From: Escherichia coli | GTDB taxonomy: Bacteria > Pseudomonadota > Gammaproteobacteria > Enterobacterales > Enterobacteriaceae | NCBI RefSeq assembly: GCF_044324785.1 | Contig: NZ_CP172127.1 | Strand: one strand, 5' to 3' | DNA: 64,000 bases | Part shown: one piece after another, positions 26,459 through 60,072 of the stretch | Layout: each line of letters opens with the position of its first letter | Numbering within the stretch: the stretch's first letter is position 1 | The notes under the pieces: model-generated | Database searches by the model: none | What the model was told of the DNA's origin: nothing | What the model saw: the letters and a program-made list of their open reading frames with translations, nothing else | Program-made: the position numbers and the translations under genes

Positions 26459-26460
26459 TA

Positions 26461-26976: not shown

Positions 26977-26986
26977 TCTCCGTACC

Positions 26987-27994
26987 TCATTGATAATCGA
27001 CGCGTAAATACCCCAGCGCGCTAAACGGCCCCTCGGTCGGTTTTTGACCGGTAATACTGATAGGCCAGGCGCGAAGTGTGACATTGGCTGCCGCAGCTGC
27101 ATCCAGACGGAAAGGAATAACGCTATTGAGATCGTTAGGCGTGATCGGCGTATCGTTCTGATCGGCGACAATAAAGCCTAAATCCTGATTGTCCGACACC
27201 ATCGCCTGACCAGAAACGGCACTGGCTTCCAGACGCATTGTTAAATAAGCCTGCGCAGCAACATTCGTACATTTGACCGCAATGCTCTTGGTTTGCGGCA
27301 TGACACCAGCAGGTCGATTACCCGGCCCTGCCGCACTAAATAACGATGCGCCGATATCACCAAAATCAAATTCAACAATCTGCCCGGCATTTAATTCGCA
27401 GTTTTGCGGTACTTCAACCCGGCCACCAAAACTAATGGTATAAACAGGTGTAACCAACGGATCGTAAGGCGTTGATGTCACATACACGGTAAACATCACC
27501 TGTCTGGGGATCTCCACCATGTTAATAAAGGGCCGAATAACCTTTAAACGAAATATCAAACGAGAATCCATCACCCCGAACGGAAGGTTTTGCGAAACGT
27601 TAGGATCTGTTCCCATACGAATATAATTTTGCGGGGGAAATTGAATATCCATCACGCTATCAACCAGACTCATCGCACCTAATAGATAATCATTTAATTG
27701 CATATATTTATAATTATCGATAGTTTCCTGAACAATAAAGTTGGTGACATAACTACGGTATGTATAATTCACCAGCGTGCCGGGTGGACAAATTGCTGAC
27801 ACACCTACCCAGCCGGATTTTTCCGGTAAAACAACAATCTGCCCTGGCTGGTTATTGGTGCTATTAAAGACATTTGAGAGATCATAGTGTTCATCTTCTG
27901 CTACGCCAGTACTATTTGCACAAACAGTAGCCCAGGATATGTTTGCCAGACACAAACATGCCATTGCCAATAATAATCTGCAGATTATCTTCAT
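26987..27994 (-). CDS. sfmH: Fimbrial adhesin-like SfmH
   Basis: 335 aa with signal peptide, operon context. Confidence 0.75.
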   Translation of the reverse strand: MKIICRLLLAMACLCLANISWATVCANSTGVAEDEHYDLSNVFNSTNNQPGQIVVLPEKSGWVGVSAICPPGTLVNYTYRSYVTNFIVQETIDNYKYMQLNDYLLGAMSLVDSVMDIQFPPQNYIRMGTDPNVSQNLPFGVMDSRLIFRLKVIRPFINMVEIPRQVMFTVYVTSTPYDPLVTPVYTISFGGRVEVPQNCELNAGQIVEFDFGDIGASLFSAAGPGNRPAGVMPQTKSIAVKCTNVAAQAYLTMRLEASAVSGQAMVSDNQDLGFIVADQNDTPITPNDLNSVIPFRLDAAAAANVTLRAWPISITGQKPTEGPFSALGYLRVDYQ

Positions 27995-28006
27995 TGATAA
28001 TTTCCT

Positions 28007-30616: not shown

Positions 30617-30646
30617 AATTAGCTCTGATATTGTCAGATGATTCGG

Positions 30647-31339
30647 TTAGTTTAAGTTCACTTCTCTGACCGGGGTTACTGAACCATAATCATTAACGGT
30701 CTGAAATTTCAGCTTTCCCTGCACTCCTGAGGGTAAGGGAATTTGTGAATTAACTCTGGGTGCAGCCATAGCATTCCCCAGTTTTTGGCTGCCCACTTGC
30801 AGGTTAACCAGGGTGACATAAAAAGGTGATGGATTATGAACATTGATATAGTTACCGGATCGCGAAAACTTGAGTGTGTCCGGCGCTTCTGCGGGTAATT
30901 CTTGTAGTTGAATTGGACGGAGAAATAACTTCATGCGCGATAAAATCGCCAGTTGCAAAACATTCCTGCCGTTCAATGCATTTTTATCTACCGAAGGGAT
31001 CGTCTTAACATTCATCCAGAACAGAGACTCACGATCTGCCGCCAGCGGTGGACCGGTGTAAATAATACGCAAAGTATTTTCGCTTTTGGGTTCACTAACA
31101 AACAGTGGCGGTGTAATGATGAATGACTTTTCTTTTACACCGCTGCTGTTTTCAATCCACGAGTTGACCAGAAAACGCTCATTGGTATGGCTATTTCTAA
31201 TCCATACCGCAGTCTGTTTAGCATCAGCGGGATAAATAATACGCGTGGCACCTAATGCGATCCCTCCGGCAGCATGGGCGCTGGCCGAAATGATTAAATA
31301 AAATATAATGAGCATCAATAACTTTATTTTAGTCATCAT
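30647..31339 (-). CDS. sfmC: Fimbrial periplasmic chaperone SfmC
   Basis: 230 aa PapD-like chaperone. Confidence 0.85.
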
Positions 31340-31558
31340 AGTTAATACGCCTTGTGTATTCCTGACGGCAAAAATAAGAAATATAAAGAAATGATTGCTT
31401 TGGTTTCTTACAACACATCATTCCCTTTTCATTTAATAAAGCGGCATGATACAAAGTGAACATGATTTCGATTTACATTGCCACCATACCGCTTCAGACA
31501 ACCGGTACATTACTTTGTTATAAGACGTGATATATAATTCAAAACAACGTGGTTTTGA

Positions 31559-32101
31559 TTATTCGTATCTCATAATAAAAGTCGCGTCAGCATTTGCTTG
31601 CCCTGCTGATGCACTTGTACCGGTGCCTTTATAACGTGCAGAAAAATGAAGAACGTTGGTCCCGGGGATCAAGTTCTGGTTGGTTGAGAAGCTATTCCCA
31701 TCAGGTTTGAGAATTGCGGATGTATTATCAAGTATTTCAATACCGACACCCGTTGCTGTTGTTGTATTGGTACTGGATGCAATGGCCAATAAATTATCAT
31801 TGATTGCATCCGCCTGACCAGAAAATGCAACGGCAGCATTAGCGGCAACAACAGGATCGCAGTCGTTCAACTGAATGGTGAATGGAATTAATGCAGAGGT
31901 ATTACCAACAGCATTGAAAATATCGGTACGATATTGACCGAGTGTGACAACCTGGTCTGCCGAGTCAGTATTCACTGAACAGGCAGCATTCACCAGTTCG
32001 CCTTCAAAGTGAATTGTACCGCCATCTACAACGGCAGCATAACTACCCGTAGCGGCGAATAGTGCGGCAGCCAGCGCAGACGAAATAAATCTTAATTTCA
32101 T
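31559..32101 (-). CDS. sfmA: Fimbrial major subunit SfmA
   Basis: 180 aa from [28 protein letters not shown]... Confidence 0.8.
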
Positions 32102-32572
32102 ATATATTCCTTCAATCTCATTTATCGACTCCACATCCGTATATAACCGATTACTTTATTTAAGACACTGATAGTAGTAAAATTCCTTTTTATCCTCTAA
32201 GAATGTCTTAATTGAAAATATGCACTCTACTCTAAAAAATAGAGAGCCCCGTTAGATGAATATTTCCGCGCAAAATATATTCAACACAAATATAGACCTG
32301 AAGCGGTAAATTACCAGGCTGAAAATTCTTTTTATATTGTCAGGTATTTCTTAAATTATCTTAATCCTTAGACAAGGAAATAAATCAGTTCCAGATTTAC
32401 AACGCCATCATGGACGAAAAATGAAGCTTTCAATCTCAGCGACGGTGCGCCTCACCTTCGCAAGAGGTCGCTTCACGCGATAAATCTGAAACGAAACCTG
32501 ACAGCGCGCCCCGCTTCTGACAAAATAGGCGCATCCCCTTCGACCTACGTAACAGATGGAATCCTCTCTCTG

Positions 32573-33439
32573 ATGGCAGCAAAGATTATTGACGGTAAAA
32601 CGATTGCGCAGCAGGTGCGCTCTGAAGTTGCTCAAAAAGTTCAGGCGCGTATTGCAGCCGGACTGCGGGCACCAGGACTGGCCGTTGTGCTGGTGGGTAG
32701 TAACCCTGCATCGCAAATTTATGTCGCAAGCAAACGCAAGGCTTGTGAAGAAGTCGGGTTCGTCTCCCGCTCTTATGACCTCCCGGAAACCACCAGCGAA
32801 GCGGAGCTGCTGGAGCTTATCGATGCGCTGAATGCCGACAACACCATTGATGGCATTCTGGTTCAACTGCCGTTACCGGCGGGTATTGATAACGTCAAAG
32901 TGCTGGAACGTATTCACCCGGACAAAGACGTAGACGGTTTCCATCCTTATAACGTCGGTCGCCTGTGCCAGCGCGCGCCGCGTCTGCGCCCCTGCACCCC
33001 TCGCGGTATCGTCACGCTGCTTGAGCGTTACAACATTGATACCTTCGGCCTCAACGCCGTGGTGATTGGCGCATCGAATATCGTCGGTCGTCCAATGAGC
33101 ATGGAACTATTGCTCGCAGGTTGCACCACTACCGTGACTCACCGCTTCACTAAAAATCTGCGTCACCACGTAGAAAATGCCGATCTATTGATCGTTGCCG
33201 TCGGCAAGCCGGGCTTTATTCCTGGTGACTGGATCAAAGAAGGCGCAATTGTGATTGATGTCGGCATCAACCGTCTGGAAAATGGCAAGGTTGTAGGCGA
33301 CGTGGTGTTTGAAGACGCGGCTAAACGCGCCTCATACATTACGCCCGTACCCGGCGGCGTTGGCCCGATGACGGTTGCCACGCTGATTGAAAACACGCTA
33401 CAGGCGTGCGTTGAATATCATGATCCACAGGGTGAGTAA
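32573..33439 (+). CDS. folD: Bifunctional methylene-THF dehydrogenase / methenyl-THF cyclohydrolase FolD
   Basis: 288 aa [23 protein letters not shown]... Confidence 0.9.
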
Positions 33440-33440
33440 C

Positions 33441-33653
33441 ATGGCGACATTTTCTTTAGGTAAACATCCGCACGTTGAGCTGTGCGACTTGCTGAAACTG
33501 GAAGGCTGGAGCGAAAGCGGCGCGCAGGCGAAAATCGCGATTGCCGAAGGCCAGGTGAAAGTCGATGGTGCGGTTGAAATGCGCAAACGCTGCAAAATCG
33601 TCGCCGGTCAGACAGTGAGTTTTGCAGGTCACAGCGTACAGGTTGTTGCCTGA
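33441..33653 (+). CDS. ybcJ: S4-like RNA-binding protein YbcJ
   Basis: 70 aa MATFSLGKHPHVELCDLLKLEGW... Confidence 0.75.
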   Translation: MATFSLGKHPHVELCDLLKLEGWSESGAQAKIAIAEGQVKVDGAVEMRKRCKIVAGQTVSFAGHSVQVVA

Positions 33654-33661
33654 TCCCTTTC

Positions 33662-33694
33662 CCGGCCTGTATCAACAGGCCGGTTCTCTTTTCA
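33662..33694 (+). terminator. Intrinsic terminator after folD-ybcJ
   Basis: CCGGCCTG-loop-CAGGCCGG followed by T-rich run. Confidence 0.55.
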
Positions 33695-33760
33695 GAATTT
33701 TGCCCTCTACGCCCCGTTCATCCATGCTGATAGCATCGACATTTTGCCGAAGCGACCATC

Positions 33761-34282
33761 ATGCCAACCGTTATTACGCACGCCGCCGTTCCCCTTTGCA
33801 TTGGTTTAGGGTTGGGTTCGAAAGTCATCCCTCCGCGCCTGTTATTTGCCGGAATCATCCTGGCGATGCTGCCCGATGCCGACGTGTTGTCGTTTAAATT
33901 TGGCGTTGCTTACGGCAATGTTTTTGGTCATCGCGGGTTTACCCATTCGCTGGCGTTTGCGTTTGTTGTCCCGCTGTTATGTGTGCTGATTGGACGTCGA
34001 TGGTTCAGGGCTGGGCTGATTCGCTGCTGGCTGTTTTTAACCGTCTCGTTGCTATCGCACAGCTTGCTGGATTCGGTAACCACTGGCGGTAAGGGCGTTG
34101 GCTGGCTGTGGCCGTGGTCAGATGAACGCTTTTTCGCTCCCTGGCAGGTGATTAAAGTCGCGCCGTTTGCATTGTCTCGTTACAGCACGCCGTACGGGCA
34201 TCAGGTGTTAATTTCTGAATTGATGTGGGTGTGGTTGCCGGGGATGCTACTGATGGGAATGTTGTGGTGGTGCAGGCGATAA
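33761..34282 (+). CDS. ybcI: Inner-membrane protein YbcI (DUF457)
   Basis: 173 aa multi-TM. Confidence 0.75.
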   Translation: MPTVITHAAVPLCIGLGLGSKVIPPRLLFAGIILAMLPDADVLSFKFGVAYGNVFGHRGFTHSLAFAFVVPLLCVLIGRRWFRAGLIRCWLFLTVSLLSHSLLDSVTTGGKGVGWLWPWSDERFFAPWQVIKVAPFALSRYSTPYGHQVLISELMWVWLPGMLLMGMLWWCRR

Positions 34283-34317
34283 CCGGATGCGAAAACTCGC
34301 ATCCGGCAATAACGCAA

Positions 34318-35703
34318 TTACTTACGACGCCAGGTGGTCCCTTGCGGGCCATCTTCCAGCACGATCCCCATCTCATTCAGACGATCACGCGCCGCATCTG
34401 CCGCCGCCCAGTCTTTCGCTTTACGGGCATCCAGACGCTGTTGAATTAACGCTTCAATCTCAGCCACTTCGCTGTCGTCTGCCTGCGCGCCGCTTTGCAG
34501 GAACGCTTCCGGTTCTTGATCCAGCAGGCCCAATACGGCGGAAAGTTTACGCAGATGAGACGCCATCGCGTTCGCCGCTGCCATATCTTCTGCTTTCAGA
34601 CGGTTTACTTCACGCGCCATATCAAACAGCACGGAATAGGCTTCCGGGGTGTTGAAATCGTCGTCCATCGCTTCAATAAAGCGCGCTTCAAACGCTTCGC
34701 CACCGGCAGGCGCAACGGTTTTATCTGTGCCGCGCAGCGCAGTGTAGAGACGCTCCAGCGCCGCACGCGCCTGCTTCAGGTTCTCTTCGCTGTAGTTCAG
34801 CTGGCTGCGATAGTGGCCCGACATCAGGAAGTAACGCACGGTTTCAGCATCGTAGTATTTCAGCACATCGCGCACGGTAAAGAAGTTACCCAGCGATTTC
34901 GACATCTTCTCGCGGTCAACCATTACCATCCCGGAGTGCATCCAGTAGTTCACATACTGACCATCATGCGCACAGGTGGACTGAGCGATTTCGTTCTCGT
35001 GGTGCGGGAACATCAGGTCTGAACCGCCGCCGTGAATATCAAAGTGGTTACCCAGCTGCTTGCAGTTCATTGCCGAACATTCAATGTGCCAGCCTGGACG
35101 GCCCGCGCCCCACGGCGACGGCCAGCTCGGTTCGCCCTCTTTCGACATCTTCCACAGAACGAAATCCATCGGGTTGCGTTTGTCGTCGACCACGTCAACG
35201 CGCGCGCCTGCCTGCAGCTGGTCGAGATCCTGACGCGACAGCACGCCATATGTCGGATCGGTCGGGACGTCAAACATCACGTCGCCGTTGTCCGCCACAT
35301 AAGCGTGACCTTTGGCGATCAGTTGTTCAGTGAGTTCAATAATTTCTGCGATATGGTGCGTCGCGCGCGGCTCCATATCCGGGCGCAGAATGTTCAAAGC
35401 ATCAAAATCTTTGTGCATTTCGGCGATCATGCGATCCACCAGCGCTACAAAGCTTTCGCCATTTTCATTGGCGCGTTTGATGATTTTGTCGTCGATATCG
35501 GTAATGTTGCGCACATACTTCAGCTTATAGCCGAGGAAACGCAGATAGCGCGCAACCACGTCAAAGGCAACAAAGGTACGCCCGTGACCGATATGACAGA
35601 GATCGTAAACGGTGATTCCACACACGTACATGCCGACTTCCCCGGCGTGAATAGGCTTAAATTCCTCTTTTTGGCGTGTCAGAGTATTGAAGATTTTTAG
35701 CAT
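34318..35703 (-). CDS. cysS: Cysteinyl-tRNA synthetase
   Basis: 461 aa; HIGH (HIGHGRT) and KMSKS motifs. Confidence 0.95.
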
Positions 35704-35876
35704 CGAAGATTCCGTTTAGACATGTGTGGGTAATTGAGTTGCGTATAATACCCATATTTCCCGCGCGAATCAGCATACATTGCGTGATGATCCGATCGTG
35801 CGGTTATGCTATAACACCACCCTATATATGACCCGAACCGGGTTGAAGCACCAATCAAACGGAACAGGATGCAAAA

Positions 35877-36371
35877 ATGGTTACTTTCCACACCAATCAC
35901 GGCGATATTGTCATCAAAACTTTTGACGATAAAGCACCTGAAACAGTTAAAAACTTCCTGGACTACTGCCGCGAAGGTTTTTACAACAACACCATTTTCC
36001 ACCGTGTAATCAACGGCTTTATGATTCAGGGCGGCGGTTTTGAGCCGGGCATGAAGCAAAAAACCACCAAAGACCCGATCAAAAACGAAGCCAACAACGG
36101 TCTGAAAAATACCCGTGGTACGCTGGCAATGGCCCGTACTCAGGCACCGCACTCTGCAACTGCACAGTTCTTCATCAACGTGGTTGATAACGACTTCCTG
36201 AACTTCTCTGGCGAAAGCCTGCAAGGTTGGGGTTACTGCGTGTTTGCTGAAGTGGTTGAAGGCATGGACGTGGTAGACAAAATCAAAGGTGTTGCAACCG
36301 GTCGTAGCGGTATGCACCAGGACGTGCCAAAAGAAGACGTTATCATTGAAAGCGTGACCGTTAGCGAGTAA
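35877..36371 (+). CDS. ppiB: Peptidyl-prolyl cis-trans isomerase B
   Basis: 164 aa cyclophilin. Confidence 0.9.
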
Positions 36372-36373
36372 TC

Positions 36374-37096
36374 GTGGCGACACTCTTTATTGCAGATCTT
36401 CATCTCTGCGTGGAAGAACCGGCGATCACCGCCGGTTTTCTGCGTTTTTTAGCGGGGGAAGCCCGCAAGGCCGACGCGCTGTATATTCTTGGCGATCTGT
36501 TTGAAGCGTGGATTGGCGACGACGATCCCAACCCACTCCATCGCCAGATGGCGGCAGCGATCAAAGCGGTGTCCGATTCCGGCGTTCCCTGTTATTTCAT
36601 TCATGGCAACCGTGATTTTCTGCTCGGCAAACGCTTTGCCCGTGAAAGCGGCATGACGTTATTGCCGGAAGAAAAGGTGCTCGAACTGTATGGTCGTCGG
36701 GTGTTGATTATGCATGGCGACACGCTGTGCACCGATGACGCGGGTTATCAGGCTTTTCGCGCCAAAGTCCACAAGCCGTGGCTGCAGACGCTATTCCTCG
36801 CCCTGCCGTTGTTTGTGCGCAAACGCATTGCCGCGCGAATGCGAGCGAACAGCAAAGAAGCCAACAGCAGTAAATCGCTGGCGATCATGGACGTTAACCA
36901 AAACGCGGTGGTCAGTGCGATGGAAAAACATCAGGTGCAATGGCTGATTCACGGGCATACCCATCGCCCGGCAGTACATGAACTTATCGCCAATCAGCAA
37001 CCTGCTTTCCGCGTGGTGCTGGGTGCCTGGCATACGGAAGGTTCAATGGTGAAAGTCACGGCGGATGACGTTGAGCTGATTCATTTTCCGTTTTAA
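36374..37096 (+). CDS. lpxH: UDP-2,3-diacylglucosamine hydrolase LpxH
   Basis: 240 aa calcineurin-like metallophosphoesterase. Confidence 0.9.
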
Positions 37097-37124
37097 ATAC
37101 CCGCAACTTTGCTGATTTCACAGC

Positions 37125-37139
37125 CACGCAACCGTTTTC
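37125..37139. promoter_or_regulatory. Putative PurR box upstream of purE
   Basis: ACGCAACCGTTTTCC resembles PurR consensus ACGCAAACGTTTTC. Confidence 0.45.
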
Positions 37140-37212
37140 CTTGCTCTCTTTCCGTGCTATTCTCTGTGCCCTCTAAAGCCGAGAGTTGTGCACCACAGGA
37201 GTTTTAAGACGC

Positions 37213-37722
37213 ATGTCTTCCCGCAATAATCCGGCGCGTGTCGCCATCGTGATGGGGTCCAAAAGCGACTGGGCTACCATGCAGTTCGCCGCCGAAATCT
37301 TCGAAATCCTGAATGTCCCGCACCACGTTGAAGTGGTTTCTGCTCACCGCACCCCCGATAAACTGTTCAGCTTCGCCGAAAGTGCCGAAGAGAACGGTTA
37401 CCAGGTGATTATTGCGGGCGCAGGCGGCGCAGCGCACCTGCCTGGCATGATTGCCGCCAAAACGCTGGTGCCAGTGCTGGGCGTGCCAGTACAGAGCGCC
37501 GCACTGAGCGGTGTCGATAGCCTCTACTCTATCGTACAAATGCCGCGCGGCATTCCGGTGGGTACACTGGCGATTGGTAAAGCTGGCGCGGCAAACGCGG
37601 CGTTACTGGCAGCACAAATTCTTGCAACTCATGATAAAGAGCTACACCAGCGTCTGAATGACTGGCGCAAAGCCCAGACTGACGAAGTGCTGGAAAACCC
37701 GGACCCGCGAGGTGCGGCATGA
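37213..37722 (+). CDS. purE: N5-carboxyaminoimidazole ribonucleotide mutase PurE
   Basis: 169 aa from [20 protein letters not shown]... Confidence 0.9.
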
Positions 37723-38786
37723 AACAGGTTTGCGTCCTCGGTAACGGGCAGTTAGGCCGTATGCTGCGCCAGGCTGGCGAACCGTTAGGCATTGCTGTCT
37801 GGCCGGTCGGGCTGGACGCTGAACCGGCGGCGGTGCCTTTTCAACAAAGCGTGATTACCGCTGAGATCGAACGCTGGCCGGAAACCGCATTAACCCGCGA
37901 GCTGGCGCGCCATCCGGCCTTTGTGAACCGCGATGTGTTCCCGATTATTGCCGACCGTCTGACTCAGAAGCAGCTTTTCGATAAGCTCCATCTACCAACC
38001 GCACCGTGGCAGTTACTTGCCGATCGCAGCGAGTGGCCTGCGGTGTTTGATCGTTTAGGTGAGCTGGCGATTGTTAAGCGTCGCACTGGTGGCTATGACG
38101 GTCGCGGTCAATGGCGTTTACGCGCCGACGAAACCGAACAGTTACCGGCAGAGTGTTACGGCGAATGTATTGTCGAGCAGGGCATTAACTTCTCTGGCGA
38201 AGTGTCGCTGGTTGGCGCGCGCGGTTTTGATGGCAGCACCGTGTTTTATCCGCTGACGCATAACCTGCATCAGGAAGGCATTTTGCGCACCAGCGTCGCT
38301 TTTCCGCAGGCCAACGCACAGCAACAAACACAAGCCGAAGAGATGTTGTCGGCGATTATGCAGGAGCTGGGCTATGTAGGCGTGATGGCAATGGAGTGTT
38401 TTGTCACCCCGCAAGGTCTGTTGATCAACGAACTGGCTCCTCGTGTGCATAACAGCGGTCACTGGACACAAAACGGTGCCAGCATCAGCCAGTTTGAGCT
38501 GCATCTGCGGGCGATTACCGATCTGCCGTTACCGCAACCGGTAGTGAATAGTCCGTCGGTGATGATCAACCTGATTGGTAGCGATGTGAATTATGACTGG
38601 CTGAAACTGCCGCTGGTGCATCTGCACTGGTACGACAAAGAAGTCCGTCCGGGCCGTAAAGTGGGGCATCTGAATTTGACCGACAGCGACACATCGCGTC
38701 TGACCGCGACGCTGGAAGCATTAATCCCGCTGCTGCCGCCGGAGTATGCCAGCGGCGTGATGTGGGCGCAGAGTAAGTTCAGTTAA
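37719..38786 (+). CDS. purK: N5-CAIR synthetase PurK
   Basis: 355 aa ATP-grasp. Confidence 0.9.
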
Positions 38787-38804
38787 CCTGGTGCTCATAT
38801 TCCT

Positions 38805-38885
38805 GCCGGATGCGGCGTGAACGCCTTATCCGACCTGTGGAAACAGTGATATTTCCAGGTCGGATAATCAGCATCGCATCAGGCA
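38805..38885. repeat. REP/BIME element (two inverted REP units)
   Basis: GCCGGATGCGGCGTGAACGCCTTATCCGACCTG and inverted partner. Confidence 0.6.
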
Positions 38886-38905
38886 CAAATACCGAATGCC
38901 TACGA

Positions 38906-39799
38906 CTACAGCGAAATACAGGTCCCCGCTTCGCCCGCCAGCGTCTCTTCAATCCGCGATAACGCCCCAATCCACGCAGGTTTGCCACGGCTTCTGACAT
39001 AGCCACTCACCGCCGTTACCTTCGGCCCCATCGAACCATCGGCTTTGGCAAATGGCGCTAACTCATCCGGTGTGGCACGGCGAATGGCGCGTTGCTGCGG
39101 CGTTCCCCAGTTTTCATAAACCGCGTCAGCATCGGTGAGGATCACCAGTCCATCTGCATTAATCTGCTCGGCGAGCAACGCAGCGGCGAGATCTTTATCA
39201 ATCACTGCTTCACTCCCTGCTCCGTCATCCGTCACAGGCACACCGCCGCCGCCACTGCAAATCACCACATGCCCCTCTTTGAGCAACAACTCGATGGCTT
39301 CGCTGTCGAGAATTTTACGCGGTTGCGGAGACGCCACCACCCGGCGCAAATATTTACCATCACGTTTCATCTGCCAGCCGTAAGCCGCTTCCAGTGCCTC
39401 TTGTTCTTCTGGCTGATAAACCGGACCGATAAACTTCTCTGGCTGCAAAAACGCCGGATCATCAGGCGAAACCTCAATGCGCGTCAGCACCGTCGTGACA
39501 GGCGGCATCTGCGGCTGTGCGCTCAAGCTCTGCGCCAGCATATAGCCAATCATCCCCTGGCTTTCCGCCACCAGCACATCCAGCGGATACGGTTCTACCT
39601 CTTTCCACGCCAGATTCTGTAACGCCAGCAGCCCCACCTGCGGCCCGTTGCCGTGAACAATCGCCAGCCGATAAGAACGGGCCAGGCGCGCCAGCGCGGG
39701 TACAGCACTGGCAATATTGCGATATTGATTTTCTGCCGTCAGCGCCTCACCGCGCTGGAGTAAGGCGTTGCCCCCAAGAGCTACAACCAGTGTTTTCAT
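38906..39799 (-). CDS. ybcF: Carbamate kinase-like protein YbcF (AllK)
   Basis: 297 aa carbamate kinase fold. Confidence 0.8.
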
Positions 39800-40611
39800 G
39801 GTTTTCCTTGTAATAATTGTTGACCAAGCCAGAACCCCAGCAGCGTATCTGCCCCTGACGTATGCCCCAGCGCCAGCAGCGAATCAATCGCAACAGCGGT
39901 ACGTTTCGGGCAACTCAGAGCATGGACAAAGTGCAGGAGTGGCGAGGCGAAATATCCTTGCGCGGCATAACGTAAATAACTGACGCTCACCGCTGTGGTA
40001 ACGAGTTGAAGATTGTCGGAACAGGCAAAAAATGGGCGACCGGAGCGCGCATCTAAAGCGCCATAATACCAGGCCGCCAGCAGCATTCCGCTCAGCGTGT
40101 CATCATGACTCGGCGTTAATCCCGGACCTTTTCCCAGCCAGTGCCGCCAGTCGGTCTTCACGCCATTGAGCGCGGCCTGAAAACAGTGGCGAAACTGGCG
40201 TAATTCAGCAGGAAGCGGATCGCCTGCCGCCAACGCCAGTGGCCCGAAAAGCCCGGTTTCCTCCGCGCGTTGCATCCATGCAGCTGCAAGCGGTTGAGGA
40301 TGCGCAGGCGGCGTAATACGCAGCAAACAATAACGCTGTGGCTGTTTAACCGTGAAACGTCCGAGGCGAATCCCTTGAGCCACAACCTTCGGTCGTTCAT
40401 TGCCGCATAATCCACCGCATAACGCATCGAATTGCGCGCGGCGAAGCACCCATCCTCCGGGGCCGAAACCACTACCCTGACGATGCAGCGTTAACAGTTC
40501 GCCGCTTTCCGTCATCAGGTTAATCGCCCGTCGCCACACTCCCGCTAACCGCCAGGACTGGCAATAATTCGGTGCGCTACGGCTGGCAAGCAGAGGATGG
40601 ATGATCGTCAT
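39796..40611 (-). CDS. ylbF: YlbF (DUF2877; oxamate carbamoyltransferase component)
   Basis: 271 aa, operon with ylbE/fdrA. Confidence 0.7.
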
Positions 40612-40621
40612 TGCGCGTTCC

Positions 40622-41881
40622 TCAACCTATCCCCATGCTTTCAGCCAGTGCTTCCAGCGCCTGTTCAAAGCAGGCCAACGGTGCCCGCACAGTGCCTGCG
40701 CCAATCTGCCCGATCCCCGCCTCTTTATGGGCGATACCGGTATTGATGAGTGGCGTAATGCCGGTTTCTACCACGCGACGAATATCCAGCCCCAGGCACG
40801 CGCCCTGAAAATCCCAGCTTGGGATCTGCAACTGCATATTGCGTTCAAGGTAAATTTCCGCCATCTCTTCAGATACCGCTCTGGCCGCTTCCATGCCACC
40901 CGCACCGACAAAGCGCGTTACGCCAGGCGCTGCGATCATTGCCGCACCTCCGATACCAAAGGTTTCGGTAATCGCACTATCGCCCATATCCGGGTTCGCC
41001 AGATCCTGCGAGAAGCCGGTGAAAAACAGACCTTGCGGAGTGTTTACAGGCGCAGTAAACCAGCGTTCGCCCAGCCCGCTGACCCGAATCCCGAACATAT
41101 TGCCGTTGCGGGTCATTGCCGTGACGATGCTGCCTGCGCGGATCATCGCGCCAGCATCCATCGCCACCTTGCAGTAAGCCATCGCGAGGTTGAGGAAGAA
41201 CTGATCGGTCACGCTGAGGAAATCCATCACTTCCGCAATGTGCTGTTTATCATGATCGAGGCGAGCAATTTGTGGGGCCAGCGTACGCATTAACAGTGCT
41301 GAGGAAGCAATATTGCGTTGATGGAACTCATCGCCCATGGTAATGCCCTGCGCCATCATTGCCGTGAGATCGATACCGCGCTCCATGCGCCCCAGCGCCG
41401 CGCTTAATACTGGCATTAACACATCGCGCATCCAGCGATGGCGAGTCAGGACATCTTCGTCGTAAGCGCCAAAACGCATCACTTTGCCGATACCTTCGTT
41501 GAGGTTGCAGTACGCCCGGTTGCCGTCGGTCACGTTCTCGACCACCAGCATCGGCATACTGGCAGAAGTAATACCGCCCATTGGCCCGACGGCATTCACA
41601 TGGTGACAAGGAATGAAGTTCACTTCCCCCTGCTCCAGTATTGCCAGCGCCTGCGCTTCATCTTTCGCCCAGCCTTCGAACAGACATGCGCCCACGCACG
41701 CCCCTTTCATGGGTCCGGTCATCTCCTGCCAGCGCATTGGCGGCCCGGCGTGAAGCAGTGTTTTGCCCTCGTTTAGTTCGCTGATAAGTGAAGAAGCCGG
41801 TTGCACATCCAGCCAGTGTGGACGAGCGCGACGAATTTGTTCGATAACCGCAGCATTGGCTTGCGCCACTGATGTAAACAT
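40622..41881 (-). CDS. ylbE: YlbE (DUF1116; oxamate carbamoyltransferase component), intact
   Basis: 419-aa uninterrupted ORF. Confidence 0.7.
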
Positions 41882-41890
41882 GGGAACCCC

Positions 41891-43558
41891 TTATTGCAAA
41901 CGTTCTAATAAACGAGCCAGTTTTTTATTGCCGCCGGCGACTGGCGACCATTGGTAATGCACAACCGGTTTGCTGGCGCTTTGTAGCTCCAGCGCAAAGC
42001 TGCGTAATCCGATGTTAATCACGGCGACGTTTTCCAGTAATGACGGTGTGTGTTGCTGTGCGGCAGGCGAGAGCGGATGAATTAACGCTGCCGCCAGCAA
42101 GGTGGCTTCCGGTAGCGAACTCACGACAGCAATCCCCGCATCTTCCAGCGTGGTGATTTGCTGCGAGCGGCATTGCGGGTCACGTTCGGTACCTGTCACC
42201 GTGGCAATGGCGTACAGCGGTTGGCTGTCTGAACGCGTGGCACAGGCTTTTTGCCAGGCGCTTACCAGCGAGGCAGCAGGATCGGCGGTCGCGCCGAAGC
42301 CAATCACCACATCAAGCAGCAACACGCGCACTTGTGGTTTAGCGCCGAGATCGGCAATTAACTGGTTGCGTAAGGTTGGGTCGATCATCGGATGGGGACG
42401 CCCGACGGTGTAGAAATCATCGCCAAGGTCAATGATCTGGTGACCATCGGCATCGAGCATCATGCCGTGATGATGGGCATCGTCGGCTACCACGCCAAGG
42501 TGCCCGGCAAGTAATCCCGCCGCTTCGGCGGCCAGCGTACCGCCGGTATACAAACCGCAAATAAGTCCACTGCTGACAGGTGCTATTGCATTACGTCGCG
42601 CCGTAACGCGTGAAAGCAGGCAAGCCAGACGTGCGGCATCATCCAGCGAGGAGGCAAACCAGACATTCTCGTCGCGGGTCACCGCCGGGGTGTAACCTAA
42701 AAACAGCGCCACCGTCGGTTTGCCGGTTGCTTTCATGGCATTAACAATTTTCAGACGCACAGCTTCGGCAGGTGGTTTTGAAACAAATGCCAGCACTTCG
42801 CTTTTCTCGTCTGCGCTGAGCATTTCCAACGCCGTCAGCGCACTGATACCGCCCACTTCACGGCTGAGGTCGCGCCCGCCAAGACCAATCGCGTGAGTAA
42901 TTCCCTCACCTGCCAGCGCAATCTGCGAGCACAGTTCCTGAATCCCGGTACCGGAAGCGCCAATGACACCAATATTTCCTTCCGGCATCACGTTGGCGAA
43001 AGCCAGCGGCGTGGCGGCGATCATCGACGTACCGCAGTCCGGCCCCATCACCAGCAAGCCTTTTTCCCGAGCGCGGGTTTTGAGTTGGATTTCATCTTCC
43101 AGCGTGACGTTATCGGAGAACATCATCACGTTGAGGTTGCGATCCAGCGCCTGATTCGCCAGCTCCGCCGCATACTCGCCAGCCACTGAAATCAGCGCCA
43201 GACTGGCATCGGGTAATTTCTGACAGGCACTGTCCCAGCGACGCACCTGCGTCAACGCCTGGCTGCTGCCTGAACCCTGCGCCAGTTGTTTTAGCGCCTC
43301 TTCAAGCTGTTGCATAATCGCCTGCGCGATCCCCGCATCCGCCGCTTCGCTACGAATTGCCACGCAAATATCGTTCGGCGTGGCGTTATTAAAATCGTCA
43401 TGCCAGAAACCTGTAGTCTCTAATAACGCTTTATTGGCGGGCGTACCCATCATTACAGAAACATCATCAACATTTTCTGATTCGCTTAGTTTTCGTGAAA
43501 TAATCATTAAACTGACCGAATCCTGAAAACACCCTTTTTTAATAAAGGCGTGGATCAT
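41891..43558 (-). CDS. fdrA: FdrA (acyl-CoA synthetase-like; oxamate carbamoyltransferase component)
   Basis: 555 aa. Confidence 0.75.
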   Translation of the reverse strand: MIHAFIKKGCFQDSVSLMIISRKLSESENVDDVSVMMGTPANKALLETTGFWHDDFNNATPNDICVAIRSEAADAGIAQAIMQQLEEALKQLAQGSGSSQALTQVRRWDSACQKLPDASLALISVAGEYAAELANQALDRNLNVMMFSDNVTLEDEIQLKTRAREKGLLVMGPDCGTSMIAATPLAFANVMPEGNIGVIGASGTGIQELCSQIALAGEGITHAIGLGGRDLSREVGGISALTALEMLSADEKSEVLAFVSKPPAEAVRLKIVNAMKATGKPTVALFLGYTPAVTRDENVWFASSLDDAARLACLLSRVTARRNAIAPVSSGLICGLYTGGTLAAEAAGLLAGHLGVVADDAHHHGMMLDADGHQIIDLGDDFYTVGRPHPMIDPTLRNQLIADLGAKPQVRVLLLDVVIGFGATADPAASLVSAWQKACATRSDSQPLYAIATVTGTERDPQCRSQQITTLEDAGIAVVSSLPEATLLAAALIHPLSPAAQQHTPSLLENVAVINIGLRSFALELQSASKPVVHYQWSPVAGGNKKLARLLERLQ

Positions 43559-43874
43559 AACAACTCCTTAAAAATTGCACCCATGGCAATTGCACGAGCA
43601 GTGTTAATGTGGCGATTACGGTATCGATGACAACGGGTAAATAAGGTGATGAATATCACACAGGGATTATTAACAAAAGAATTCAAATAACCGCTATGCT
43701 ATTACGTGTTATTTTTTAATAAGCGTGGTTGTTTTAAAAACCAGGTTAAAAGCGAGCGGATTATCAAATAAATTCTAACTATATTTTTTTGCCTGTCTGG
43801 ATCACATAATCCAGATATTTTCCCTGTATGTTAATTGCAGTCATGCTTCACACCGTCGTTAAAAAGGAAGACAG

Positions 43875-44924
43875 ATGAAAATCAGTCGGGAAACACTCCA
43901 CCAGCTAATCGAGAATAAACTCTGCCAGGCTGGGTTAAAACGTGAGCACGCTGCAACCGTGGCTGAAGTATTGGTTTACGCCGATGCCAGAGGGATCCAC
44001 TCTCATGGCGCGGTGCGCGTTGAATACTACGCAGAACGCATTTCAAAAGGCGGCACCAACCGCGAACCGGAGTTTCGTCTTGAAGAAACCGGGCCATGTT
44101 CAGCAATTTTACATGCTGACAATGCCGCCGGACAGGTCGCGGCGAAAATGGGCATGGAACATGCCATCAAAACCGCCCAGCAAAATGGCGTTGCGGTGGT
44201 CGGTATCAGCCGGATGTGTCACAGCGGCGCAATCTCTTATTTTGTACAGCAGGCAGCTCGCGCCGGGTTAATTGGCATTTCGATGTGCCAGTCCGATCCA
44301 ATGGTGGTGCCGTTTGGCGGCGCGGAAATTTACTACGGTACTAACCCACTGGCCTTTGCCGCGCCGGGAGAAGGCGACGAGATCCTTACCTTTGATATGG
44401 CGACTACCGTACAGGCATGGGGAAAAGTGCTCGACGCCCGCTCGCGTAATATGTCTATCCCGGATACCTGGGCGGTCGATAAAAACGGAGCACCAACAAC
44501 CGATCCATTTGCAGTTAACGCCCTGCTCCCTGCCGCCGGACCGAAAGGGTATGGCCTGATGATGATGATTGACGTCCTCTCAGGCGTCTTACTCGGCTTA
44601 CCGTTCGGGCGACAGGTTAGTTCGATGTATGACGATTTACACGCCGGGCGTAATTTGGGGCAATTACATATCGTTATTAACCCGAACTTTTTCTCCTCCA
44701 GCGAATTATTCCGTCAACATCTTAGCCAGACCATGCGTGAATTAAATGCCATTACCCCCGCGCCCGGTTTTAACCAGGTTTATTATCCCGGACAGGATCA
44801 GGATATTAAACAACGCAAAGCCGCCGTCGAAGGCATCGAAATTGTTGATGATATTTACCAGTATTTAATTTCCGACGCGCTTTATAACACGTCATACGAA
44901 ACGAAAAATCCCTTTGCGCAATAA
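43875..44924 (+). CDS. allD: Ureidoglycolate dehydrogenase AllD
   Basis: 349 aa. Confidence 0.85.
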   Translation: MKISRETLHQLIENKLCQAGLKREHAATVAEVLVYADARGIHSHGAVRVEYYAERISKGGTNREPEFRLEETGPCSAILHADNAAGQVAAKMGMEHAIKTAQQNGVAVVGISRMCHSGAISYFVQQAARAGLIGISMCQSDPMVVPFGGAEIYYGTNPLAFAAPGEGDEILTFDMATTVQAWGKVLDARSRNMSIPDTWAVDKNGAPTTDPFAVNALLPAAGPKGYGLMMMIDVLSGVLLGLPFGRQVSSMYDDLHAGRNLGQLHIVINPNFFSSSELFRQHLSQTMRELNAITPAPGFNQVYYPGQDQDIKQRKAAVEGIEIVDDIYQYLISDALYNTSYETKNPFAQ

Positions 44925-44945
44925 TTATTGAGACAGGACTTTCTT

Positions 44946-46181
44946 ATGATTACACATTTTCGTCAAGCCATAGAAGAAACGCTGCCCTGGCTTTCCTCTT
45001 TTGGCGCTGACCCAACGGGTGGTATGACCCGTTTACTTTATTCGCCGGAATGGCTGGAAACTCAGCAGCAATTTAAAAAAAGAATGGCAGCAAGCGGGCT
45101 GGAAACACGTTTCGATGAAGTGGGCAATTTATACGGTCACCTGAGTGGGACCGAATATCCACAGGAAGTGGTTCTGAGCGGTTCGCATATCGATACCGTG
45201 GTTAACGGCGGTAACCTCGACGGGCAATTCGGCGCGCTGGCGGCGTGGCTGGCAATTGACTGGCTGAAAACGCAATACGGCGCGCCGTTACGTACGGTCG
45301 AAGTGGTGGCGATGGCAGAAGAAGAAGGCAGCCGCTTCCCGTATGTCTTCTGGGGCAGTAAAAATATCTTTGGGCTGGCGAATCCTGACGACGTGCGGAA
45401 TATCTGTGATGCCAAAGGAAATAGTTTTGTCGATGCGATGAAGGCTTGCGGATTTACTCTGCCGAACGCCCCACTAACTCCGCGTCAGGATATTAAAGCC
45501 TTTGTCGAACTGCATATCGAACAGGGCTGTGTGCTGGAAAGTAATGGGCAGTCAATTGGCGTGGTGAATGCAATTGTCGGGCAGCGTCGTTATACGGTGA
45601 CGCTGAATGGCGAATCAAACCATGCAGGCACCACGCCGATGGGTTATCGTCGTGATACGGTTTACGCTTTCAGTCGCATTTGCCATCAGTCTGTCAAAAA
45701 AGCGAAAAAGATGGGTGACCCGCTGGTGCTGACCTTTGGTAAGGTGGAGCCGCGCCCGAATACGGTGAATGTGGTGCCGGGTAAAACCACGTTCACCATT
45801 GATTGTCGTCATACCGATGCTACCGTGCTGCGCGATTTCACCCAACAGTTAGAAAACGACATGCGGGCGATTTGCGATGAAATGGACATTGGTATTGATA
45901 TCGATTTATGGATGGACGAAGAACCCGTGCCGATGAACAAGGAACTGGTCGCCACCCTGACAGAATTGTGTGAAAGCGAAAAACTGAATTACCGGGGGAT
46001 GCACAGTGGTGCCGGGCACGACGCACAAATTTTCGCGCCGCGCGTGCCGACCTGCATGATTTTTATCCCCAGCATCAACGGGATCAGTCATAACCCGGCA
46101 GAACGCACCAATATTACCGACCTTGCCGAAGGGGTCAAAACGTTGGCACTCATGCTTTATCAACTTGCCTGGCAGAAATAA
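44946..46181 (+). CDS. allC: Allantoate amidohydrolase AllC
   Basis: 411 aa from MITHFRQAIEETLPWLSSFG..., M20 peptidase family. Confidence 0.85.
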   Translation: MITHFRQAIEETLPWLSSFGADPTGGMTRLLYSPEWLETQQQFKKRMAASGLETRFDEVGNLYGHLSGTEYPQEVVLSGSHIDTVVNGGNLDGQFGALAAWLAIDWLKTQYGAPLRTVEVVAMAEEEGSRFPYVFWGSKNIFGLANPDDVRNICDAKGNSFVDAMKACGFTLPNAPLTPRQDIKAFVELHIEQGCVLESNGQSIGVVNAIVGQRRYTVTLNGESNHAGTTPMGYRRDTVYAFSRICHQSVKKAKKMGDPLVLTFGKVEPRPNTVNVVPGKTTFTIDCRHTDATVLRDFTQQLENDMRAICDEMDIGIDIDLWMDEEPVPMNKELVATLTELCESEKLNYRGMHSGAGHDAQIFAPRVPTCMIFIPSINGISHNPAERTNITDLAEGVKTLALMLYQLAWQK

Positions 46182-46191
46182 GGAGTTATAA

Positions 46192-46977
46192 ATGGGATAT
46201 TTAAATAACGTCACCGGTTACCGCAATGATTTACTGGCTAACCGTGCGATTGTTAAACACGGTAATTTCGCGCTGCTAACCCCGGACGGTCTGGTAAAAA
46301 ATATTATTCCGGGCTTTGAAAATTGTGACGCGACAATCCTCTCCACGCCAAAGCTGGGGGCCTCTTTTGTTGATTATCTGGTCACACTGCATCAAAACGG
46401 CGGTAACCAACAGGGCTTCGGTGGTGAAGGAATTGAAACGTTCCTGTATGTGATCTCTGGAAATATCACTGCCAAAGCCGAAGGGAAAACATTTACCTTA
46501 AGCGAAGGTGGTTATCTTTATTGCCCGCCAGGCTCCTTAATGACTTTTATTAACGCCCAGGCCGAAGACAGCCAAATCTTTTTATATAAGCGTCGCTATG
46601 TTCCGGTAGAAGGTCATGCGCCGTGGCTGGTTTCTGGCAATGCCAGCGAACTGGAACGCATTCATTATGAAGGCATGGACGATGTTATTCTGCTGGATTT
46701 TCTGCCCAAAGAGTTAGGTTTTGATATGAACATGCATATCCTCTCTTTTGCGCCAGGTGCCAGCCACGGTTATATCGAAACTCACGTCCAGGAACACGGT
46801 GCCTATATTCTTTCCGGTCAGGGGGTTTATAACCTCGACAATAACTGGATCCCGGTGAAAAAAGGCGATTACATCTTTATGGGCGCTTATTCCTTACAGG
46901 CCGGTTATGGCGTAGGGCGTGGTGAAGCGTTTAGTTATATTTACTCAAAAGATTGCAACCGCGACGTAGAGATTTAA
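46192..46977 (+). CDS. allE: (S)-ureidoglycine aminohydrolase AllE (YlbA), cupin
   Basis: 261 aa bicupin. Confidence 0.8.
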   Translation: MGYLNNVTGYRNDLLANRAIVKHGNFALLTPDGLVKNIIPGFENCDATILSTPKLGASFVDYLVTLHQNGGNQQGFGGEGIETFLYVISGNITAKAEGKTFTLSEGGYLYCPPGSLMTFINAQAEDSQIFLYKRRYVPVEGHAPWLVSGNASELERIHYEGMDDVILLDFLPKELGFDMNMHILSFAPGASHGYIETHVQEHGAYILSGQGVYNLDNNWIPVKKGDYIFMGAYSLQAGYGVGRGEAFSYIYSKDCNRDVEI

Positions 46978-47106
46978 GTCATACCACTCGCCTGATTATT
47001 TTTAGCTATGTTGGATTTTGCCACGGTTTATACCGTGGCTTTTTTTGTAGTAAATTCAGGTAAAAAACGGATGCGGGATAAAATGCATCCGCTCTAATGG
47101 CAAGAG

Positions 47107-48252
47107 TCAGTTTTTAATTCCCTGACCTATTTTAATGGCGCAGGCAATATTTCGTGCGCTGTTGAAGAGATTGGTTTCACCGCTGGCGAGCACTTCGGCT
47201 AAAGGTGCCAGACGTGGCAAAATGCTGAACACCGCGTCAATGCCGTACTGGTGCACCACTTCCACGCCATCACCCAATACGCCAGCAATCCCAATCACCG
47301 GGACATTAAACTGCTTCGCCACCGACGCCACGCCCAGCGGCGCTTTACCACCTGCCGTTTGCGAGTCGATGCGCCCTTCCCCGGTGATCACCAGCGCTGC
47401 ACCCTGCACCGCCTGCTCCAGGTTGACCGCCCGCAGTACAATCTCAATACCCGGTTTAATATCCGCATTGAGGAATACCGCCGCCGCAATACCCATCCCG
47501 CCCGCCGCGCCGCCGCCCGCCATCTGGCAGACATTAATTTCAGTTTGCTGTTGTAAAACACGGGCGTAATTTTGCAGCCCCTGTTCCAGCTCTTCGACCA
47601 TTTCCGGTGTTGCCCCTTTTTGCGGGCCAAACACCGCCGCCGCGCCGCGTGCCCCTACCAGCGGGTTATCAACGTCACATGCTACTTCAATATGGCAGTT
47701 CGCCAGACGCGGATCGCATTCCTCCATCTCAATTCTTGCCACGCGCGCTAAATTGCCGCCGTTAGCCGCCAGCACCTGGCCGTCGGCATCGAGAAAACGC
47801 ACACCAAGCGCCTGCGCCATGCCCATACCGCCGTCGACCGTCGCACTGCCGCCAATGCCGAGAATAATATGGCGAATACCGTTATCCAGCGCATGACGAA
47901 TTAACTCCCCCGTACCAAAACTGGAGGCCAGCAACGGATTACGCTTTTCAGGCGCGACCAGCATCAAGCCACTTGCTGCCGCCATCTCAATCACCGCTGT
48001 TTTCCCGTCGCCGGTAAGGCCATAAAAAGCATTCACTTTTTCGCCCATCGGCCCGCAGACTTCAAGCGTCACGATGTTGCCGCCCGTCGCGGCGACCATC
48101 GCATCCACAGTCCCTTCGCCGCCATCCGCTATCGGCAAACAGATATAGTGCGCATCGGGAAAGAGGGTCGAAAACCCGGCTTTAATTGCCTGACAACATT
48201 TTTCTGCACTTAAGCTCTCTTTAAACGAGTCTGGCGCAATGACAATCTTCAT
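47107..48252 (-). CDS. glxK: Glycerate kinase II GlxK
   Basis: 381 aa from [20 protein letters not shown]... Confidence 0.85.
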
Positions 48253-48273
48253 TATCAATCCTTTTTCAACAAA

Positions 48274-49581
48274 TTATTCGATGCGTTCCCACGGAATAAG
48301 ATTATCCATAAGAACAGCCAGTAAAATCCCGACCAGTAAGCCGTTACTGAGCAGAGGACGCAGCGTTAATGGAAGGTCTTGCAGATACACAGGCGGTAAT
48401 GCCATTAAAAATATGCCGACAAATAACGGCAATGCGAGTCGATAAATATTGCGAGCGGTAAACGTTATTTGCTGGCTAAACACCAGCGCCGAAAAGAGTA
48501 AAGGCAGATAAGAAACCAGCATAACCGCGCTACTCACCGGTAAAGGGATACTGCAAAACAGTCGTGTGAGTGCCGGAACCAGTGCCACCAGCAGGCAAAT
48601 AACGCTGCCATAAATAAACGAACGCCGCGTGTAATCGCCAGTCTGGGTTAATAAACCAATGGATGAAACAAACGGTGAAAATGGAATTACCGCCAGCGGT
48701 ACGGTTATCAGCGTCATAAATCCGGTCGCCACAAAGCTACGACGATAACGCGTATTCCCCGCGCCCTGCTGCGGATAAAAAACATCCGTGCCACGAATCG
48801 CACCGTAGGTATTGCTGATATTTACCAGACCTGTAATCACCGCCGTCAGAATAATCCCCGGCGACAAAGCACCGCCACTGCCGAGCGGGAACCACTGCCA
48901 GTGCAACTCACCGGAGAGCGAATGCGAAGAAGGAAAGCAAAAGTACCACAACAACCAGCCGGTTATGGTACCGACCAGCAGGCCATAACGGGCAAAACGT
49001 TGCGGCAGAAAGATAATCATCGCCAGTACCAGGCACATCACCGCGACCGAGAGCGCGAACGGCGGTAACTGAATTTTAAAATTCGGGTCGGCTATGCCAA
49101 ACGGCAGCCCGAGCATACCTTTGAAAAAGATAGTGGTCAGCTGCGCGCCCAGCATCAACATAAACAAGACCATCACCGACGGCGTAAATAACCGCGCCAG
49201 ACGATGACCTAATCCGCTAAAACCAATCAACATCGTCAGCACGCCAGAGAGCGCAATTCCCACCGCCAGGCTGGTAGCGATATCGTTGATCGGTGTCCCG
49301 CGCGATGCTTCGCCAAGGGTGATAGTAAGGATGGTTCCCCACCACAGGCCACCCGGCCCTTCCATAATAGCGCGACGATGACCGCAGAACGCCTGAGCGA
49401 AGCAGGCCAGTGCGGTAGCAAGAAAAGCATATTGCGTGAGCGTAAGCAGGCTACTTTGCGGCAACTGAAAAGCAGAAAGTAGCGTAGGAGGAACCACAAC
49501 AGTGTTGCAAAAAATAAAGAAAAACCACTGAAATCCTGATAACAGGCTTTCGCGGCTGACTGCAAAATTGAACATAAACAC
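48274..49581 (-). CDS. ybbY: Putative purine/xanthine permease YbbY
   Basis: Multi-TM NCS2-like ORF; start may be the internal Met. Confidence 0.7.
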   Translation of the reverse strand: MFMFNFAVSRESLLSGFQWFFFIFCNTVVVPPTLLSAFQLPQSSLLTLTQYAFLATALACFAQAFCGHRRAIMEGPGGLWWGTILTITLGEASRGTPINDIATSLAVGIALSGVLTMLIGFSGLGHRLARLFTPSVMVLFMLMLGAQLTTIFFKGMLGLPFGIADPNFKIQLPPFALSVAVMCLVLAMIIFLPQRFARYGLLVGTITGWLLWYFCFPSSHSLSGELHWQWFPLGSGGALSPGIILTAVITGLVNISNTYGAIRGTDVFYPQQGAGNTRYRRSFVATGFMTLITVPLAVIPFSPFVSSIGLLTQTGDYTRRSFIYGSVICLLVALVPALTRLFCSIPLPVSSAVMLVSYLPLLFSALVFSQQITFTARNIYRLALPLFVGIFLMALPPVYLQDLPLTLRPLLSNGLLVGILLAVLMDNLIPWERIE

Positions 49582-60010: not shown

Positions 60011-60072
60011 TGGCCGGTATTCTGAAACGGCGATTGTCGTGAGAACAGAATGGTTGCACCAGAATACAGATA

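Follow-up and report, generated by a model that had tools for sequence, protein, structure and literature searches.

The allFGHK operon of a natural Escherichia coli strain and the status of its uninterrupted ylbE gene

The closest described counterpart of the locus considered here is the allFGHK operon of E. coli K-12 MG1655 (b0518, b4572/b0519, b0520 and b0521). AllFGH is experimentally established as oxamic transcarbamylase (OXTCase): the work relied on MG1655 deletions and on purified AllFGH cloned from MG1655, listed AllG as a protein of 419 aa, and found that MG1655 forms oxamate in a manner dependent on allG (Kim & Kim 2024, PMC11326118). YbcF/AllK is the catabolic carbamate kinase, for which carbamate kinase kinetics have been reported together with RT-PCR of the operon (Kim et al. 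2022, PMC9843812). Regulation of the allF operon promoter by AllS and ArcA has also been described, with EMSA: AllS binds a fragment spanning -203/-144, ArcA-P a fragment spanning -142/-83 (PMC12535856).

The way in which these components would work together can be put briefly. A single mRNA would issue from the promoter in the allD-allF intergenic region, with AllS and ArcA-P as activators, during anaerobiosis with allantoin. The allD product would make the oxalurate that AllFGH consumes; AllF, AllG and AllH, jointly constituting oxamic transcarbamylase, would catalyze the reversible reaction oxalurate + Pi <-> oxamate + carbamoyl phosphate; AllK would convert carbamoyl phosphate and ADP to ATP and carbamate, the latter breaking down to NH3 and CO2. 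Each allantoin would thereby supply the urease-negative E. coli with a third ammonia and also with one ATP.

The window is a 64,000-nucleotide stretch of an E. coli chromosome (contig NZ_CP172127.1). Four tightly packed minus-strand ORFs fill its positions 38906-43558, as taken from the ORF list. The relevant features are:

41891..43558, minus strand: fdrA/allF, 555 aa, large subunit of oxamic transcarbamylase (ORF and domains)
40622..41881, minus strand: ylbE/allG, 419 aa, oxamic transcarbamylase subunit (ORF and Pfam)
39796..40611, minus strand: ylbF/allH, 271 aa, oxamic transcarbamylase subunit (ORF and Pfam)
38906..39799, minus strand: ybcF/allK, 297 aa, catabolic carbamate kinase (ORF and NCBIfam)
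41626..41630, minus strand: GGGGG run at ylbE nt 252-256, CCCCC on the plus strand (three-way alignment of window, MG1655 and W3110)
43559..43874, no strand: divergent allD-allF intergenic region, 316 nt, which holds the allF operon promoter
43875..44924, plus strand: allD, ureidoglycolate dehydrogenase, 349 aa, first gene of the divergent allDCE operon

The genes are co-oriented and adjacent in the order fdrA/allF, ylbE/allG, ylbF/allH, ybcF/allK: the first two junctions are gaps of 9 nt and 10 nt, while the ylbF stop and ybcF start overlap by 4 nt (ATGA), and a Shine-Dalgarno-like sequence lies 5' of each of fdrA, ylbE and ylbF. The fdrA product carries Pfam domains CoA_binding (PF02629; succinyl-CoA-synthetase-alpha-like) and Ligase_CoA (PF00549), scores 1035.6 bits against NCBIfam NF004760 FdrA, and matches PDB 3DMY, "Protein fdrA", at E 7e-300. 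The ylbE product matches Pfam PF06545 AllG (E 2.6e-97) and, over residues 2-414, aligns full-length with the 421-aa PDB chain 3CLQ; that of ylbF matches Pfam PF11392 AllH (E 4.6e-29), and that of ybcF has the Pfam AA_kinase domain and hits the NCBIfam NF006926 carbamate kinase equivalog at 619.4 bits. For all four products, family matches far exceed the curated cut-offs. Values of dN/dS for the four genes range from 0.03 to 0.09, and those for fdrA (0.08) and ylbE (0.09) indicate ordinary purifying selection; of 5,426 complete genomes, 5,407 match the operon over 80% or more of the query. The four ORFs are real genes rather than chance. The ORF limits, Pfam and NCBIfam thus bear out the gene identification made in a first-pass annotation of this DNA, the published work (PMC11326118, PMC9843812) bears out the link that it drew to anaerobic allantoin/oxamate catabolism, and its description of ylbE as uninterrupted also stands: the gene (40622-41881) has an ATG start and no internal stop, and reads as a single 419-aa ORF.

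The surroundings are equally regular. AllFGHK adjoins allDCE, divergently oriented, inside an intact allantoin regulon: allS, allA, allR, gcl, hyi, glxR, allW, allB, ybbY, glxK, allE, allC and allD, together with the flanking selU, align without gaps and have their MG1655 lengths. With the four operon genes added to these 14 (selU among them), the allantoin cluster numbers 18 genes, each of them full-length. We put at roughly 95% the probability that this is simply the usual chromosomal allFGHK operon, known earlier as fdrA-ylbE-ylbF-ybcF, in a natural, non-K-12 strain of E. coli.

Comparison with MG1655 makes the point in detail. The same four genes occur there in the same order and with the same lengths (555, 419, 271 and 297 aa); the operon length is also equal in the two, at 4,653 nt, so that the spacing of the junctions must be equal as well. 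Against NC_000913.3 the operon shows 130 differences in 4,653 nt (97.2% identity), all of them substitutions. Protein identity is 97.5% for AllF, 98.8% for AllG, 98.5% for AllH and 99.3% for AllK, which amounts to 25 amino-acid substitutions in total, distributed as 14 in AllF, 5 in AllG (414/419 identical), 4 in AllH and 2 in AllK. The divergent allDCE arrangement and the flanking purK are shared; allD itself aligns gap-free, with 4 substitutions, and the genes flanking the operon are 96.5-98.0% identical to those of MG1655. The REP-containing spacer 3' of ybcF is 119 nt long in the window and 194 nt in MG1655, and no rhsD island lies beside selU in the window. From the protein identities of 97.5-99.3% we infer that the reactions, co-transcription and regulation known in MG1655 carry over to this strain. 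The 2.8% nucleotide divergence of the operon also upholds the first-pass conclusion that the window is not MG1655. The argument by which that conclusion had been reached, that an intact ylbE confirms it, does not hold: the gene is intact in both strains and therefore cannot discriminate between them.

What, then, of the frameshift that the first-pass annotation ascribed to ylbE of K-12 MG1655? The current record, NC_000913.3, annotates there an intact CDS of 1,260 nt (b4572, YP_009029994.1), a single 419-aa ORF. The pairwise alignment that had been proposed as a test places the two YlbE proteins side by side with 414 of 419 residues identical and 0 gaps. Since the alignment is gap-free and the MG1655 gene intact, which is the very result named in advance as contradicting the claim, the claim is refuted. 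The ylbE gene of BW25113 is likewise intact and is identical to that of MG1655.

The frameshift nevertheless has a documentary existence. The ylbE result is reportedly that of Freddolino et al. 2012, on variation among MG1655 stocks, as cited or reproduced by three later papers. The W3110 record of 2006, NC_007779.1, marks ylbE as "frameshifted". Its ylbE sequence differs from that of MG1655 only by an A for G at nt 114 and by GGGG for GGGGG at nt 252-256, and runs into a stop after codon 86; the frame is lost because four G stand in place of five. The window has GGGGG and G114, like current MG1655, where the W3110 record has GGGG and A114; these are otherwise the same gene at the same position, with 98% DNA identity. 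In older papers ylbE appears among the pseudogenes of MG1655, and the discrepancy in the reference is noted in resequencing papers, which give the lesion of the superseded sequence as "547,831 +G" together with "547,694 A->G" (PMC5460176, PMC4404585, PMC4759930).

How widespread is the broken allele? Of 5,417 matching records, 5 contain the exact frameshifted 79-mer (G4), while the exact intact 80-mer (G5) is present in 3,776, counts that cover this single ylbE lesion only; the idea that the species commonly carries the frameshift allele is accordingly rejected. Among the G4 matches listed, four are at 100%: W3110, CIT, LIM and CAR, all at 547795/547796. The CIT record, the one of the latter three that was inspected, likewise marks ylbE as frameshifted. 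Another MG1655 assembly, NZ_CP032667.1, yields no exact match to the G4 query. A genuine difference in ylbE between K-12 and wild-type strains is also rejected, with current MG1655 and BW25113 intact and G4, among the matches listed, limited to the W3110 record and the three same-coordinate records. As far as these records go, what has passed for a "K-12 frameshift" amounts to the loss of a single G from the GGGGG run, found nowhere but in the superseded MG1655 sequence and the few records that agree with it.

One can still ask whether the intact gene is a strain-specific restoration, such that the oxamate branch works here and not in a frameshifted K-12. The W3110 record, the three records with the same coordinates and the pseudogene listing in older papers speak for it. 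Against it stand the intact 419-aa ylbE of NC_000913.3, aligned to that of the window without gaps; the intact BW25113 gene; the MG1655 assembly that lacks an exact G4 match; the occurrence of G4 in so few records; and the biochemistry, in which MG1655 makes oxamate dependent on allG and active AllFGH comes from MG1655 DNA. Since deletions in MG1655 and clones derived from it served to demonstrate OXTCase, MG1655 ylbE is functional, and the restoration of ylbE in this strain is exceedingly improbable. Because ylbE is unbroken in current MG1655 and in almost all E. coli genomes, an unbroken copy in the window is nothing special: across the genomes compared, E. coli normally has the 419-aa ylbE uninterrupted, the current MG1655 reference included.

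Variation in the locus is found elsewhere. The nearest complete genome is that of E. coli N3 (NZ_CP031609.1), with 99.1% identity to the window over 24 kb. Its ylbF and ybcF are identical to those of the window in DNA sequence and its ylbE is 4 nt apart, whereas fdrA differs at 55 nt. A divergent block extends over roughly 41100-49500, as would be seen in a recombination mosaic. The fdrA allele of the window is at most 97.4% identical to that of any complete E. coli genome. Import of this allele from outside E. coli is unsupported: its differences are spread along the gene, and the fdrA alleles of other E. coli strains are themselves 36-57 nt apart from each other, so that high diversity is normal at this locus. 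At the protein level, AllF has A294T, two residues from D296, and AllG has G141D and A239V, which are absent even from N3.

The promoter region also varies. The AllS fragment (-203/-144) maps to 43702-43761 of the window and the ArcA-P fragment (-142/-83) to 43641-43700. The allD-allF intergenic region has its MG1655 length; all but one of its 11 substitutions lie in the EMSA fragments (6 in the AllS fragment, 4 in the ArcA-P fragment). The top-listed records differ from this allele by no more than 1 nt, and it has matches of at least 99% identity in 1,783 complete-genome records; promoter divergence as a sign of lost regulation is rejected as a special feature of this strain, the allele being common. 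A consensus promoter/terminator scan of 38700-44000 returned fewer sites than shuffled sequence, and so was no guide to the signals of the operon.

Could the operon be intact and yet changed in function, the allF allele (for example A294T), AllG G141D/A239V or the promoter polymorphisms shifting the split between oxamate and glyoxylate? The idea draws on an fdrA allele that stands 2.6% or more apart from those of all complete genomes, on the concentration of 10 of the 11 intergenic differences in the AllS and ArcA fragments, and on the precedent of FdrA D296Y, which alone raised the oxamate yield in MG1655 (PMC8550087). The window, however, retains D296, the dN/dS of 0.08-0.09 is that of ordinary purifying selection, fdrA alleles elsewhere are as diverse, and the promoter allele is widespread; a shifted split in this strain is, on balance, very improbable. 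In the narrower form, with the divergent allF allele (A294T) and AllG G141D and A239V acting together, the proteins might alter the kinetics of OXTCase or the way in which ureidoglycolate is divided between oxamate and glyoxylate, which is a long shot; were it true, natural allFGH alleles would be a source of variation in the nitrogen and ATP yield from allantoin.

The 18 full-length genes, dN/dS values of 0.03-0.09 and a common promoter allele together argue that the pathway is probably functional in this strain. What the window carries is the normal, intact E. coli operon for the final two steps by which allantoin is broken down anaerobically. Work of 2021-2025 characterized this operon along with the enzymes and regulators that belong to it, and intact ylbE is the rule in the species, so the biological import is small. 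The belief that ylbE of MG1655 carries a frameshift goes back to a superseded reference, and the practical value of the comparison lies in correcting it: the state of ylbE should serve neither as a strain marker nor as evidence against the oxamate branch in K-12.

The four operon genes lie where the first-pass annotation placed them, between 38906 and 43558 of the window, and ylbE is one undivided frame; both points are borne out by an ORF list (window 36000-46000) and by Pfam and NCBIfam:

fdrA (allF), 41891-43558, minus strand: ORF of 555 aa
ylbE (allG), 40622-41881, minus strand: ORF of 419 aa, ATG start, without internal stop
ylbF (allH), 39796-40611, minus strand: ORF of 271 aa
ybcF (allK), 38906-39799, minus strand: ORF of 297 aa

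The genes are separated by a 9-nt and a 10-nt gap and then joined by a 4-nt ATGA overlap, with a Shine-Dalgarno-like sequence upstream of fdrA, ylbE and ylbF each. Pfam identifies the fdrA product (a succinyl-CoA-synthetase-alpha-like fold) as CoA_binding plus Ligase_CoA, the ylbE product as AllG (PF06545, E 2.6e-97), the ylbF product as AllH (PF11392, E 4.6e-29) and the ybcF product as AA_kinase; NCBIfam scores are 1035.6 bits for FdrA and 619.4 bits for the carbamate kinase equivalog. An undivided AllG is the normal architecture of its family, since 3CLQ, a full-length 421-aa homologue of solved structure, aligns to YlbE residues 2-414.

What does not hold is the premise that ylbE is frameshifted in E. 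coli K-12 MG1655. In the current reference (NC_000913.3, 538000-556000) ylbE (b4572, YP_009029994.1) is an ordinary 1,260-nt CDS without a pseudogene flag, and an ORF scan of that locus finds a single 419-aa ORF there. The pairwise alignment that the first-pass annotation had proposed gave the very result it had named as contrary to its claim: MG1655 ylbE is intact too, and over 1,260 alignment columns it differs from the window by 21 substitutions and not a single gap (BLASTP of the proteins: 414/419 identities, 0 gaps). BW25113 ylbE is identical to that of current MG1655. The use of ylbE as a distinguishing mark thus rests on an outdated reference sequence.

The source of the frameshift can be followed in the W3110 record, NC_007779.1, in which ylbE (2582-3840 of the excerpt used here) is annotated as a 1,259-nt "frameshifted" pseudogene. 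In a three-way alignment it differs from current MG1655 ylbE only twice: G is replaced by A at nt 114, and the GGGGG run at nt 252-256 is one G short (GGGG), the lesion bringing in a stop after codon 86. These are exactly the differences from the older MG1655 reference that resequencing papers list ("547,694 A->G" and "547,831 +G ... Two mutations make ORF"; PMC5460176). The frameshift is retained in the public W3110 record though removed from the MG1655 reference. The window has five G, at 41626-41630. Both alleles were counted with queries spanning the G run, hits in the at-least-99% band being taken as exact: the 80-nt five-G query has such hits in 3,776 records, whereas of the 5,417 records that match the 79-nt four-G query only 5 do so exactly. 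Four of these 5, listed at 100%, are W3110, CIT, LIM and CAR, all at record position 547795 or 547796; NZ_CP032667.1, another MG1655 assembly, has no exact match to the four-G query. CIT, the one of the last three records that was inspected, is 4,639,673 bp long, with ylbE annotated as "frameshifted" and gene coordinates the same as in W3110. Because of this agreement, and of the match positions, CIT, LIM and CAR are read as K-12-type records.

That the window is not MG1655 remains correct, on grounds other than ylbE, which is intact in both. Of the operon's 4,653 positions, 130 are not the same as in MG1655 (97.2% identity; adjacent housekeeping genes, 96.5-98.0%). The ybcF-purK spacer (window 38787-38905) is 119 nt long here and 194 nt in MG1655, which carries additional REP-type palindromic units (GCCTGATGCG...CTTATCAGGCCTAC), so that the copy number of repetitive extragenic palindromes differs. 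The rhsD-ybbC-ylbH-ybbD-ylbI-ylbG island, which adjoins selU in MG1655, is missing: the selU-ybbP spacer (window 60011-60651) is just 641 nt, with no similarity to the MG1655 rhsD island. It has REP-like sequence, and AAACCGACATGACAGT[CT]GGTTT occurs in it twice. At the other end, window 1-25000 adjoins the conserved sfm-folD-cysS region and is a variable prophage: it contains lambdoid genes (terminase large subunit, portal, ybcK recombinase, replication protein), and of 5,426 genomes only 192 have it at a coverage of 80% or more.

The closest complete genome is that of E. coli strain N3 (NZ_CP031609.1; 99.1% over 24 kb). Its ylbF and ybcF are identical to the window's, while ylbE differs by 4 nt and fdrA by 55 nt. 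Across most of 26000-41000 there are 0-1 differences per 500 nt; divergent stretches lie at 34000-35500, 36000-36500 and about 41100-49500, with dense differences in cysS, ppiB and the fdrA-allD-allC-allE-glxK-ybbY block. Such a distribution is that of a homologous-recombination mosaic. Among 5,426 complete E. coli genomes, none has an fdrA allele more than 97.4% identical to the window's (typically about 96%); the locus is generally diverse, since alleles of other strains lie 36-57 nt apart from one another. Among the AllF substitutions is A294T, two residues away from D296. FdrA D296Y raised oxamate yield in evolved MG1655 (PMC8550087); D296 is kept in the window. By analogy, the unusual allF and allG alleles might shift oxamate-branch flux in this strain, which is unlikely.

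Assignment of the genes to anaerobic allantoin/oxamate catabolism is upheld by the family matches and by published work: the operon's function is already known, worked out in MG1655 itself, and its reaction-level mechanism is established. Purified AllF-AllG-AllH cloned from MG1655 DNA (AllG given as 1,260 bp, 419 aa) interconverts oxamate plus carbamoyl phosphate and oxalurate plus Pi (Kim & Kim 2024, PMC11326118). RT-PCR shows fdrA-ylbE-ylbF-ybcF to be a single transcript, whose ybcF gene encodes a catabolic carbamate kinase (Kim et al. 2022, PMC9843812). The operon's activators are AllS and ArcA (Kim & Kim 2025, PMC12535856); upstream of allF, AllS binds a -203/-144 fragment and ArcA-P a -142/-83 fragment (PMC12535856). 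The allD-allF intergenic region has the MG1655 length (316 nt) and 11 substitutions, ten of them in the two EMSA fragments (120 nt, window 43641-43761) and one in the flanking 196 nt. As a natural variant this allele is common: its identity to the top-listed records is 99.7%, and 1,783 complete-genome records, ATCC 8739 among them, match it at 99% or more.

AllF is 97.5% identical to its MG1655 counterpart (14 substitutions, dN/dS 0.082), AllG 98.8% (5, 0.093), AllH 98.5% (4, 0.066) and AllK 99.3% (2, 0.033); by these ratios, all four genes are under ordinary purifying selection. Thirteen further allantoin-cluster genes (allS, allA, allR, gcl, hyi, glxR, allW, allB, ybbY, glxK, allE, allC, allD) align with MG1655 gap-free and at MG1655 lengths, as does selU. 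At 80% or more query coverage the operon is found in 5,407 of 5,426 complete genomes: it is a normal, near-universal and previously characterised E. coli operon. Given the near-identity, the low dN/dS, the intact allantoin cluster and the common promoter-region allele, the pathway is probably functional in this strain.
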